Part shown: positions 1 through 431 of the stretch, in pieces | Numbering within the stretch: position 1 is the stretch's first letter | Layout: each line of letters opens with the position of its first letter | Assembly (NCBI RefSeq): GCF_003334385.1 | Contig: NZ_QOWN01000183.1 | Source: Escherichia coli | GTDB lineage: Bacteria; Pseudomonadota; Gammaproteobacteria; Enterobacterales; Enterobacteriaceae | Length of the DNA stretch: 431 nt | Strand: one strand, 5' to 3' | The notes under the pieces: model-generated | Databases searched by the model: none | Told to the model about the DNA's origin: nothing | Seen by the model: the letters and a program-made list of their open reading frames with translations, nothing else | Position numbers and translations under genes: made by a program

Positions 1-77
1 GCAACCAGCATTAGTGAAAATGAAATACCGACAATCACACACAGGACCTTTGCCGGCGTTATGAGTTTGTCTGACAT
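1..77 (-). CDS. 5' end of a protein-coding gene (start ATG at 77-75, continues beyond window position 1); hydrophobic N-terminus suggests a membrane or secreted protein; identity unknown
   Basis: Minus-strand ATG at 77-75 is the first start after an in-frame TAA (89-87). It is preceded by AAGGGG (88-83) with a 5-nt spacer. The frame stays open to position 1 and reads MSDKLITPAKVLCVIVGISFSLMLV..., with a hydrophobic stretch from about residue 10. The supplied track omits it, apparently because it is partial. Confidence 0.6.
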   Translation of the reverse strand, partial: MSDKLITPAKVLCVIVGISFSLMLV

Positions 78-79
78 AG

Positions 80-175
80 CTACCCCTTAATTGCCACAAT
101 TAACTGGGATACTACCCATAAAAAAGGGATGCTCCAGACCAGCAAAAATTTCCAGTTTGGTAATTGACTAATCAT
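80..175 (-). CDS. Candidate small ORF, 31 aa (MISQLPNWKFLLVWSIPFLWVVSQLIVAIKG), predicted single-pass small membrane protein; hypothetical
   Basis: This is the internal ATG (175-173) of the 70-aa track ORF, in the same frame, with TAG stop at 82-80. AGGGAG (190-185) lies 9 nt upstream. The peptide has a roughly 20-residue hydrophobic core (FLLVWSIPFLWVVSQLIVAI) flanked by K residues. Caveat: the minus strand is T-rich here, which favours hydrophobic codons by chance. Confidence 0.35.
   Translation of the reverse strand: MISQLPNWKFLLVWSIPFLWVVSQLIVAIKG
83..88 (-). promoter_or_regulatory. Shine-Dalgarno / ribosome-binding site (AAGGGG) for the gene starting at 77
   Basis: Minus-strand AAGGGG lies 5 nt upstream of the ATG (AAGGGGtagctATG), a near-ideal spacing for a purine-rich Shine-Dalgarno. 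Confidence 0.6.
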
Positions 176-184
176 GAGTCGCAA

Positions 185-190
185 CTCCCT
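185..190 (-). promoter_or_regulatory. Putative Shine-Dalgarno (AGGGAG) for the candidate small ORF
   Basis: Minus-strand reads AGGGAGttgcgactcATG. The GGAG core is present and the 9-nt spacer is at the long end of the functional range. Confidence 0.35.
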
Positions 191-240
191 AATCAGTTTG
201 CTAAAATCAATCAAGGCAGCCTCCCATAGCTTACTGCCAT

Positions 241-280
241 AAAAACAAAACCCCGCTTGCTGCCAACAAACGGGGTTTTT
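241..280. terminator. Rho-independent (intrinsic) terminator, potentially bidirectional
   Basis: Stem 251-259 (CCCCGCTTG) pairs with 267-275 (CAAACGGGG): 9 bp with one C/A mismatch and five G-C pairs, loop 260-266. It is followed on the plus strand by TTTTT (276-280) and preceded by AAAAACAAAA (241-250), which is UUUUGUUUUU on the minus strand. The minus-strand TAA stop at 287-285 lies 9 nt before the hairpin. Confidence 0.75.
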
Positions 281-284
281 ACTT

Positions 285-431
285 TTATTCACTTACATTT
301 TGCCAGTTCGCAGGATTTCGTGTTATCCGTCCGCCTTGGCCAACGTCATTTATTAGCAAAATATTCTGCTTATCTGTCGATTCCCCAGCACGCCAGCGCG
401 CTCTCCTGGTCTCGCCGGGATACCTGACCGT
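285..431 (-). CDS. 3' end of an upstream protein-coding gene (enters from beyond 431, TAA stop at 287-285); product unknown; frame assignment uncertain
   Basis: Minus-strand frame is open from 431 to the TAA at 287-285 (48 codons: ...TVRYPGETRRARWRAGESTDKQNILLINDVGQGGRITRNPANWQNVSE*), and the stop is followed immediately by the terminator. Caveat: this frame holds several codons rare in enterobacteria (AGG x2, AGA, CGA, CGG, CTA, ATA x2). Another minus frame, stopping at 372-370, and a stop-free plus frame are also open here. Confidence 0.4.
   Translation of the reverse strand, partial: TVRYPGETRRARWRAGESTDKQNILLINDVGQGGRITRNPANWQNVSE

Follow-up and report, generated by a model that had tools for sequence, protein, structure and literature searches.

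A gene for a predicted small inner-membrane protein in a putatively mobile, terminator-bounded cassette of phage late operons

Among small phage membrane proteins, the holin/antiholin pairs are encoded by genes with dual starts, as in S105/S107 of lambda and S68/S71 of phage 21. In lambdoid phages, the Q-modified RNA polymerase is also able to read through terminators. Other described systems come close to the locus treated here in other ways. These include morons, in the definition of Juhala et al. 2000 as it is cited in passages of PMC4104026 and PMC3594210; the antisense layout in which SymR lies over symE (PMC4147584); and the AgvB/AsxR “anti-sRNAs” and Pas small RNAs (sRNAs) of lambdoid prophages, which are 50 to 70 nucleotides (nt) long, end in a terminator, and run antisense to the late operon at moron sites (PMC4104026; bioRxiv 10.64898/2026.05.13.724894). 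The locus in question is a 431-nt stretch of Escherichia coli DNA (contig NZ_QOWN01000183.1), called the window throughout, and the element of interest is a small gene on its minus strand, at positions 80-214. The best overall explanation of this gene, to which a probability of roughly 0.55 may be given, is that it specifies a late-expressed, membrane-acting phage small protein, carried in a mobile cassette and gated by a terminator and an antisense RNA.

The gene, its product, and its starts

The product of the gene at 80-214 is predicted to be a 44-amino-acid (44-aa) single-pass inner-membrane protein consisting of a cytoplasmic amphipathic helix, a Leu-Pro kink, and a C-terminal transmembrane helix. 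Its 44-codon open reading frame (ORF), MIDFSKLIRELRLMISQLPNWKFLLVWSIPFLWVVSQLIVAIKG, runs from a TTG at 214..212 to a TAG at 82..80, belongs to PHROG 6632, and is preceded at a distance of 5 nt by a Shine-Dalgarno sequence that reads GGGAGG (220..225). A preliminary description of the window had singled out the last 31 codons as a candidate gene (MISQLPNWKFLLVWSIPFLWVVSQLIVAIKG, 80..175), which start in frame at the ATG of Met14 (175..173) and share the stop codon. All that it listed is present exactly as described: the ORF, an AGGGAG Shine-Dalgarno-like element (185..190, 9 nt before ATG14), the hydrophobic stretch, and the KG tail. The extent of the gene has to be revised, however. To judge from the homologues, the conserved product has 44 or 45 aa and begins 13 codons upstream, the 31-codon ORF being its C-terminal part.

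What argues that this ORF codes for protein? Across 64 to 71 distinct DNA versions, the reading frame is preserved together with the length and the hydrophobic character, and length is constant at 44 to 45 codons in the family. Substitutions in related genomes were examined along with the frame and are biased toward synonymous change. In codons 15-27 (19 unique sequences), the synonymous divergence (pS) is 0.67 and the nonsynonymous divergence (pN) is 0.16, a ratio of 0.25. In codons 28-45 (15 RWW-type sequences), pN/pS is 0.37, and over codons 15-45 as a whole it ranges from 0.22 to 0.37 at a high synonymous divergence (pS of 0.6 to 0.7). This pattern indicates that codons 15-45 are under purifying selection and that the ORF is protein coding, so the proposal of a genuine small single-pass membrane-protein gene stands. 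The N-terminal 13 residues are likewise conserved as protein among members below 35% identity, with the motif xDxSK(L/I)xRExRxM.

The family to which the gene belongs has been catalogued. When the frame is translated as a longer, 70-aa protein (discussed below), residues 28-69 match positions 2-43 of the 45-position PHROG 6632 profile (E 1.3e-12), while the 31-aa form aligns only to positions 14-43 (E 6e-5). A purpose-built family hidden Markov model finds the window ORF at E 2e-22, and the ORF shares the start position, length, and helix-kink-transmembrane architecture of PHROG 6632. The family comprises 74 clusters at 90% identity, with 56 representatives among 1.84 billion proteins. Its hosts include Escherichia, Salmonella, Enterobacter, Citrobacter, Klebsiella, Providencia, and Yersinia, as well as more distant high-GC contigs, and Shiga toxin (Stx)-converting phages are among its carriers. 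In all sources, its members go by the names “hypothetical,” “phage protein,” or “putative bacteriophage protein.” No relative was found in Pfam, NCBIfam, PADLOC, or PDB, and a full-text literature search for the peptide motifs of the family gave no match. The earlier suggestion that the gene might be undescribed was thus too strong, since it already exists as PHROG 6632 and in NCBI as “hypothetical” or “phage” proteins. Three features appear to be new from these comparisons: the architecture of the cassette, the gene's dual start, and the candidate antisense promoter.

To briefly describe the predicted protein, the top 19-residue Kyte-Doolittle window covers residues 11-29 of the short form, with a mean of 2.19. 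AlphaFold2, run on the long form with a 26-sequence alignment, places helices at residues 4-17 and 20-43 with a break at Leu18-Pro19 (predicted local distance difference test score, 79.9). The first helix is amphipathic, with a hydrophobic moment of about 0.46 to 0.50, and carries K6, R9, and R12. The modeled topology fits a tail-anchored protein with its N terminus inside, its C terminus outside, and almost no periplasmic part.

Where does translation begin? The frame is open upstream of the 31-codon ORF as far as 292, and RefSeq/PGAP, where it annotates the region at all, calls a 70-aa coding sequence (CDS; WP_001043230.1) from a GTG at 292 (window 80-292, minus strand). This model was rejected. 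Its upstream 26 codons are the terminator described in the next section, and the CDS is over-extended, because homologues read that terminator in different frames further upstream (KNPVCWQQAGFCF versus KTPFVGCKRGFVF). Homologues in Salmonella phages FSL SP-016 and SEN34, in Stx phages, and in Providencia, Citrobacter, Yersinia, Enterobacter, and Klebsiella prophages instead begin 13 codons upstream of ATG14. Their start codon is usually GTG, with ATG in locus L097 and in distant high-GC members, and AAGGGAG, AAAGGAG, or ACGAGGA stands at the equivalent Shine-Dalgarno position. Across 64 unique DNA versions, the long-start column holds GTG in 43, TTG in 6, and ATG in 3, and a Shine-Dalgarno-like site accompanies 51 of these 52. 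The window copy combines its TTG start with a C terminus of the ...AIKG subtype, which also occurs in Providencia and Salmonella. The comparison suggests that the gene should be redrawn as 214..80 with an internal start at 175. At loci L147 to L150, the N-terminal 6 to 8 codons are replaced or interrupted, and the part from about codon 7 onward is kept.

The internal start is itself well conserved. ATG14 is found in 64 of 64 unique DNA versions, though residues 13 and 15 vary freely, and a Shine-Dalgarno-like element precedes it in 58 of the 64, so the ATG and ribosome-binding site to which the preliminary description drew attention are conserved features. As mentioned, the AGGGAG element lies inside the longer gene, where it simultaneously makes up codons R9 and E10. 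In a core set of 19 sequences, R9 is encoded only by the rare codons CGG or AGG and E10 always by GAG, which keeps GGGAG 9 nt before ATG14; in a wider set, E10 is GAG in 56 of 58 sequences. ATG14 and its Shine-Dalgarno element therefore appear to be under selection at the nucleotide level, as expected of an internal ribosome-binding site, and some gene callers do report products of 30 to 32 aa for the family. Both a long (44/45-aa) and a short (31/32-aa) product are plausible on this comparative evidence. The short form could even predominate in this prophage, because the long start is the weaker TTG. A short second hairpin lies over the long-form Shine-Dalgarno sequence (window about 215-246, minus strand), paired as GGCAG...CUGCC here and as CCUUG...CAAGG in many relatives. 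This spacer hairpin could be a modulator of initiation or an antisense kissing loop.

Cassette boundary, insertion sites, and neighbors

Ahead of the gene lies a GC-rich hairpin (247..279) between an A-tract and a T-tract, which a terminator scan identifies as an intrinsic terminator. It is bidirectional, serving both strands, and forms the upstream boundary of the cassette. It precedes the ORF in every context, in most family members about 32 to 40 nt ahead of the start. High-GC members, too, have the two tracts at its sides. The hairpin also folds on the plus strand (there followed by UUUUUACUUUU), and sequence conservation ends at its A-tract. When 16 diverse cassettes are aligned, RNAalifold finds a consensus stem of 12 pairs, 7 of which show compensatory changes. 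A strict perfect-stem finder detects the hairpin in 48 of 64 sequences, a figure that under-counts bulged stems; because this finder misses bulged hairpins, the claim is based on the 16-sequence alignment and on inspection. No sigma-70-like sense promoter was seen on the minus strand, including the ~32 nt between hairpin and start and the region upstream within the cassette.

Gene and terminator travel together as a compact, AT-rich, horizontally mobile cassette of which the terminator is the fixed upstream boundary. The GC content of the family ORF is 0.39, versus 0.54 in flanking genes. Where is the cassette found? Among 68 unique cassettes, 33 follow an endolysin gene and are usually followed in turn by Rz, 18 lie between the myovirus baseplate genes V and W, and 3 lie between the lambda-type tail genes K/I and J. 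The remaining 14 are unclassified, some of them beside type II toxin-antitoxin (TA) genes. The endolysins ahead of the cassette are of at least five unrelated types and include signal-arrest-release (SAR) and canonical glycoside hydrolase 24 (GH24) enzymes, GH19 enzymes, M15 peptidases, and others. By this census, the cassette is always co-oriented with its surroundings and occupies insertion-tolerant junctions in the late operons of unrelated phages. As in morons, it is inserted between adjacent genes of conserved operons, using three junctions, and is absent from related phages such as DLP12 and Qin of K-12.

Some copies depart from this picture. Distant family members with the upstream hairpin stand beside type II TA genes (PrlF/YhaV; ParE; YafQ/RelB) at L105 454-603 and L107 2501-2635, and no recognizable phage late operon surrounds these two copies. 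Tandem family copies, two or three in number and some of them degenerate, occur on one contig at L111, L113, L149, and L107.

Such a patchy distribution brings to mind a lysogenic-conversion or superinfection-exclusion moron, that is, an inner-membrane protein expressed from the prophage that blocks phage DNA entry in the manner of HK97 gp15, T4 Imm, or P22 SieA or that otherwise benefits the host. Presence or absence at operon junctions, low GC content, spread over phage types and genera, and a product predicted to sit in the membrane would all suit this role, as would carriage of the cassette in 704 of 5,426 complete E. coli genomes (~13%). The explanation is nonetheless quite improbable. 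No sense promoter is evident, a terminator directly upstream would prevent expression in the prophage state, no PADLOC defense model matches, and the protein has almost no periplasmic portion with which to meet an incoming phage.

The 431-base window itself is identical to chromosomal prophage DNA of many E. coli strains, and 2,027 of the 5,426 complete genomes match some part of it. It is the endolysin-to-spanin junction in the late operon of an E. coli lambdoid prophage, with its genes on the minus strand. In annotated records, the order on that strand is a class II holin gene, a YdfR-like gene, and the gene for a SAR-type phage lysozyme (N terminus MSAKIKYGLSAAILALITAGASAP). The 3' end of the lysozyme gene, named from the RefSeq annotation of identical sequence, occupies 370..431 (minus strand; stop codon 372..370). 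The terminator hairpin (279..247) comes next, then the family ORF, a 43-aa ORF from position 77, a 51-aa ORF, a 28-aa ORF, and Rz (“lysis protein”). Between the endolysin stop and the hairpin stands the motif GGATAACACGAAAT (315..328, minus strand), which is kept in E. coli and Salmonella phage relatives and occurs 105 times across the 199 loci collected.

The window placement gives rise to the main rival explanation, in which the protein is a regulator or helper of the lysis machinery (antiholin-like, a SAR-endolysin release factor, or an i-spanin Rz partner) and is translated together with Rz. The 33 of 68 cassettes between endolysin and Rz speak for it, as does the spacing in most RWW-type copies, where the family ORF stops 2 nt from the Rz start. 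The product is also a single-transmembrane protein with a possible dual start like that of holin/antiholin pairs, and the window has a SAR-type endolysin with a class II holin upstream. Yet the same cassette lies at baseplate V/W in 18 of 68 cases, at tail K/I-J, and beside TA genes outside lysis cassettes. At least five unrelated endolysin families precede it, so there is no specific partner with which it covaries, and in the window three small ORFs separate it from Rz. It has no holin Pfam match. On balance, a dedicated role in lysis is unlikely.

What about a partner closer at hand? The preliminary description had placed the ORF in the leader of a downstream gene and likened it to KdpF, AcrZ, CydX, and MgtS, accessory peptides that modulate larger membrane proteins; in this view, translation would be from ATG 175 only and the target would be encoded next door. 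Small size, a single transmembrane helix, and the conserved ATG14 with its Shine-Dalgarno element are compatible with that idea. The locus is a prophage lysis region, however, and the next gene, beginning at 77, is not that of a large membrane protein; it is the 43-aa hydrophobic ORF already mentioned (MSDKLITPAKVLCVIVGISFSLMLV...; gene start at 1..77, minus strand; ATG 77..75, 2 nt past the stop of the family ORF), a member of PHROG 4906. Neighbors differ wholly from phage to phage (the 43-aa ORF, Rz, baseplate W, or tail J), and because the cassette sits at endolysin/Rz, baseplate V/W, and tail K/I-J junctions of unrelated phages, no large membrane protein accompanies it throughout. Protein-level conservation extends, moreover, to the 13 codons upstream, whose start and Shine-Dalgarno sequence are conserved too, and no similarity to any KdpF, AcrZ, CydX, or MgtS family was found. 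Genomic context thus largely refutes the accessory-peptide idea, which is the least probable of the explanations considered.

The small ORFs beyond the gene deserve brief mention. The full 43-aa product is MSDKLITPAKVLCVIVGISFSLMLVALFLSLAWVMLSSSGLLG (L001 5946-6077; PHROG 4906 match, E 4.5e-21). The pair formed by the family ORF and the 43-aa ORF recurs in L097 and L177, and a 48-aa homologue of the latter (ECs_1966) lies directly before Rz in Sakai Sp10. The 51-aa small hydrophobic ORF before Rz (L001 5827-5982, minus strand) matches PHROG 3246/1115/4493, and the 28-aa hydrophobic ORF, which ends in AIRWW (L001 5729-5815, minus strand), weakly matches the C terminus of the family (E 0.09 among 279 segments). 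These two ORFs may be remnants of further family copies. A counterpart in K-12 was sought and rejected: R and Rz directly abut or overlap in DLP12 and Qin, with no gene between them, and the small proteins YnfQ/R/S/T/U and YlcI of Qin and DLP12 are located elsewhere, not at the R/Rz junction.

The preliminary description was right that such a gene is often missed by annotation. No feature is annotated at the cassette in 7 of 7 full-length matches among the matches listed for the 704 E. coli genomes that carry it, and other records give the over-long 70-aa CDS. A widespread cassette has thus gone unannotated or has been misannotated.

A candidate antisense promoter within the first codons

Synonymous sites vary little in the N-terminal codons: synonymous divergence is 0.25 in codons 2-13 versus 0.67 downstream. 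In the core set of 19 sequences, the codons for D3 (GAT), S5 (AGC), K6 (AAA), E10 (GAG), and R12 (CGA) are invariant, and R12 is CGA in most of the wider set as well. Why would these codons be frozen? A conserved mRNA structure was considered as the cause and rejected, RNAalifold having found no conserved mRNA fold over codons 3-12. Read on the plus strand, the same stretch contains a putative promoter (179..207) with a -35 element TCGCAA at 179-184, a 17-nt spacer, and an extended -10 element TGCTAAAAT (TGcTAAAAT) at 199-207. The window has one match to TGNTAWAAT, versus 0.06 expected. In 55 of 64 unique sequences, the pattern TGnTAnnnT keeps its register despite amino acid changes at residues 3, 4, and 5. 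The codon for residue 4 may specify F, I, L, or S, and its third base is always T (TTT, ATT, CTT, or TCT, with Leu always CTT), which keeps the A2 of the -10 element. Residue 5 may be S or I, and its codon, AGC or ATC (ATC in L111), always ends in C, which keeps the TG and T1. AU-richness alone would not favor AGC or CTT.

From the geometry of this promoter and the terminator, a cis-antisense RNA of ~70 nt is predicted at 213..285 on the plus strand. Its fold energy is -20.8 kcal/mol, with a z score of -2.96. The model of an antisense promoter giving a ~70-nt RNA over the long-form ribosome-binding site has, on the strength of codon and motif conservation, roughly even odds. If correct, it would account for both the bidirectionality of the hairpin and its joint spread with the ORF.

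Could the conserved unit consist of RNA or DNA only, a terminator and an opposite-strand sRNA gene, with the ORF incidental? Nucleotide-level constraint does act on the 5' third of the ORF, and no element is structurally more conserved than the hairpin. Codons 15-45, however, lie outside the proposed promoter and RNA and still keep frame, length, and hydrophobicity, with the low pN/pS given above, and distant members under 35% identity retain the same architecture. A unit with no functional protein is therefore very improbable.

Published sRNAs from similar regions were compared with the predicted RNA. The hairpin was considered as an AgvB/AsxR/Pas sRNA and rejected, those RNAs mapping upstream of the holin and their Rfam models having no match. 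Three sets of candidates from Hfq cross-linking and analysis of cDNA (Hfq-CRAC) were likewise rejected. EcOnc10-12, antisense peaks at a distance of about 5 kb from AgvB, map downstream of Rz, and Sp10 does not have the family; EcOnc33 (~71 nt) is inside an esterase gene; and EcOnc22 is at an I-J junction and belongs to a different unit of a hairpin and a 39-aa ORF. In this last unit (L198; Sakai NC_002695.2 2902690-2902931, at the Sp15 tail I-J junction), the 39-aa ORF is flanked by two hairpins, and EcOnc22 (~85 nt), an antisense peak published as Hfq bound, maps to it. The insertion hot spot that takes up the cassette thus also accommodates a different combination of small ORF and antisense RNA. 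In phage CP-1639, the known prophage sRNA STnc100 (RF02076, 176.7 bits) lies at L005 1017-1226, just downstream of stx1B and about 350 nt upstream of the cassette copy of that phage.

Proposed mechanism and comparison with described systems

How might the cassette work? The preferred explanation, a terminator- and antisense-gated late membrane protein, can be broken down into four steps, given here in order of decreasing support. (i) The sense message, lacking a promoter of its own, would be produced by read-through or by Q-antiterminated late transcription; with a terminator upstream and no sense promoter detected, sense transcription would have to start at the late promoter and pass the terminator. 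The protein would then be made late in lytic growth, and the terminator would block its synthesis in the lysogen. (ii) Two in-frame products would be made, the long one from TTG 214 and the 31-aa short one from ATG 175. (iii) The extended -10 promoter within codons 3-12 would fire the ~70-nt antisense RNA from a start near 213-215. This RNA would cross the start codon and Shine-Dalgarno sequence of the long form, pair with its ribosome-binding site, and end at the same hairpin, making a gate that resembles SymE/SymR and, like type I TA systems, keeps leaky expression off. (iv) The protein would act on the cytoplasmic membrane itself (permeabilizing, depolarizing, or timing lysis) rather than as a subunit of a neighboring complex.

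Several observations weigh against this explanation. Of the 6 positions of the candidate -35 element TCGCAA, only 3 match, and distant members have not retained the element; the -10 element is missing at its register in 9 of 64 sequences. The conservation of S5 and K6 may be due to the protein, and AU-rich or rare codons are common near starts in general. Rfam yields only ohsC on the window (E 0.62, below the gathering score) and nothing at gathering score in 15 loci. Those Sakai Hfq-CRAC sRNA peaks that could be placed are not at this position, and the Sakai regions examined do not have the family. As for the dual start, a few distant proteins (P0092 and P0107) do not have Met14, so the short form cannot be universal and the long form is the universally conserved product. 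If it is efficient, the terminator is hard to reconcile with a place inside a myovirus baseplate operon. That the protein is membrane active and toxin-like is guessed from its size and hydrophobicity and from the layout, and the proposals on expression, antisense RNA, and dual start come from comparative sequence.

A bolder and less probable version would make the cassette a new, self-contained, antisense-gated, small-toxin-like module combined with a dual-start gene and found in late operons of phages with at least three unrelated architectures. Here, one hairpin would serve both as a roadblock for sense transcription and as the terminator of the ~70-nt antisense RNA. Since that RNA would silence only the ribosome-binding site of the long isoform, the ratio of RNA to message would set the balance between the 44/45-aa and 31/32-aa forms of a membrane-active peptide. 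The outcome would be a switch of the type I TA kind affecting lysis timing or abortive killing.

If the preferred explanation of a membrane-active protein gated by terminator and antisense RNA is true, the cassette would represent a widespread new small-protein/antisense module in phage lysis or exclusion biology, and it would explain the recurrent “terminator” in the middle of late operons. Its practical yield is a set of corrected gene boundaries (214..80, internal start 175) and the prospect of telling protein function and antisense promoter apart by synonymous mutations.

How does the family compare with what has been described? With KdpF, AcrZ, CydX, and MgtS, it shares a length below 50 aa and one predicted transmembrane helix. 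It differs from them in having no constant partner gene and no homology (no Pfam or NCBIfam match) and in being phage-borne and mobile, and they have no counterpart to its conserved cytoplasmic amphipathic N-terminal helix. Phage morons such as HK97 gp15 are similar in being extra AT-rich DNA between conserved late genes, with patchy presence, horizontal spread, and a small membrane protein as product. A classical moron, however, is transcribed independently, from a promoter ahead of it to a terminator behind it, whereas the cassette has its terminator upstream and shows no sense promoter. The AgvB/AsxR and Pas RNAs differ in lying upstream of the holin or near stx and in not being paired with the family ORF, and their Rfam models RF02702 and RF02703 have no match at the cassette.

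The holin/antiholin genes are alike in specifying a small membrane protein in a lysis cassette and in having two conserved in-frame starts, the longer form bearing extra N-terminal positive charge (here K6, R9, and R12). The starts of the family are 13 codons apart, not 2 to 3; a class II holin is already present upstream; and the gene, which has no holin family match, is also found outside lysis cassettes (at least 21 of 68 unique cassettes). Type I TA systems, finally, have their own points of difference. The family has no sense promoter of its own, its terminator is directly upstream of the ORF, and its antisense RNA is putative; no antitoxin match came from Rfam and no similarity to known toxins from Pfam, and SymE is, unlike the family product, a 113-aa non-membrane protein. 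Yet with the type I systems (the SymE/SymR layout, Ibs/Sib, Hok/Sok, and Ldr/Rdl) it shares a small hydrophobic single-transmembrane peptide of less than 60 aa, carriage on mobile elements, and tandem copies, and with SymE/SymR in particular a putative promoter just inside the ORF whose RNA would lie over the Shine-Dalgarno sequence and start codon and end at an intrinsic terminator.

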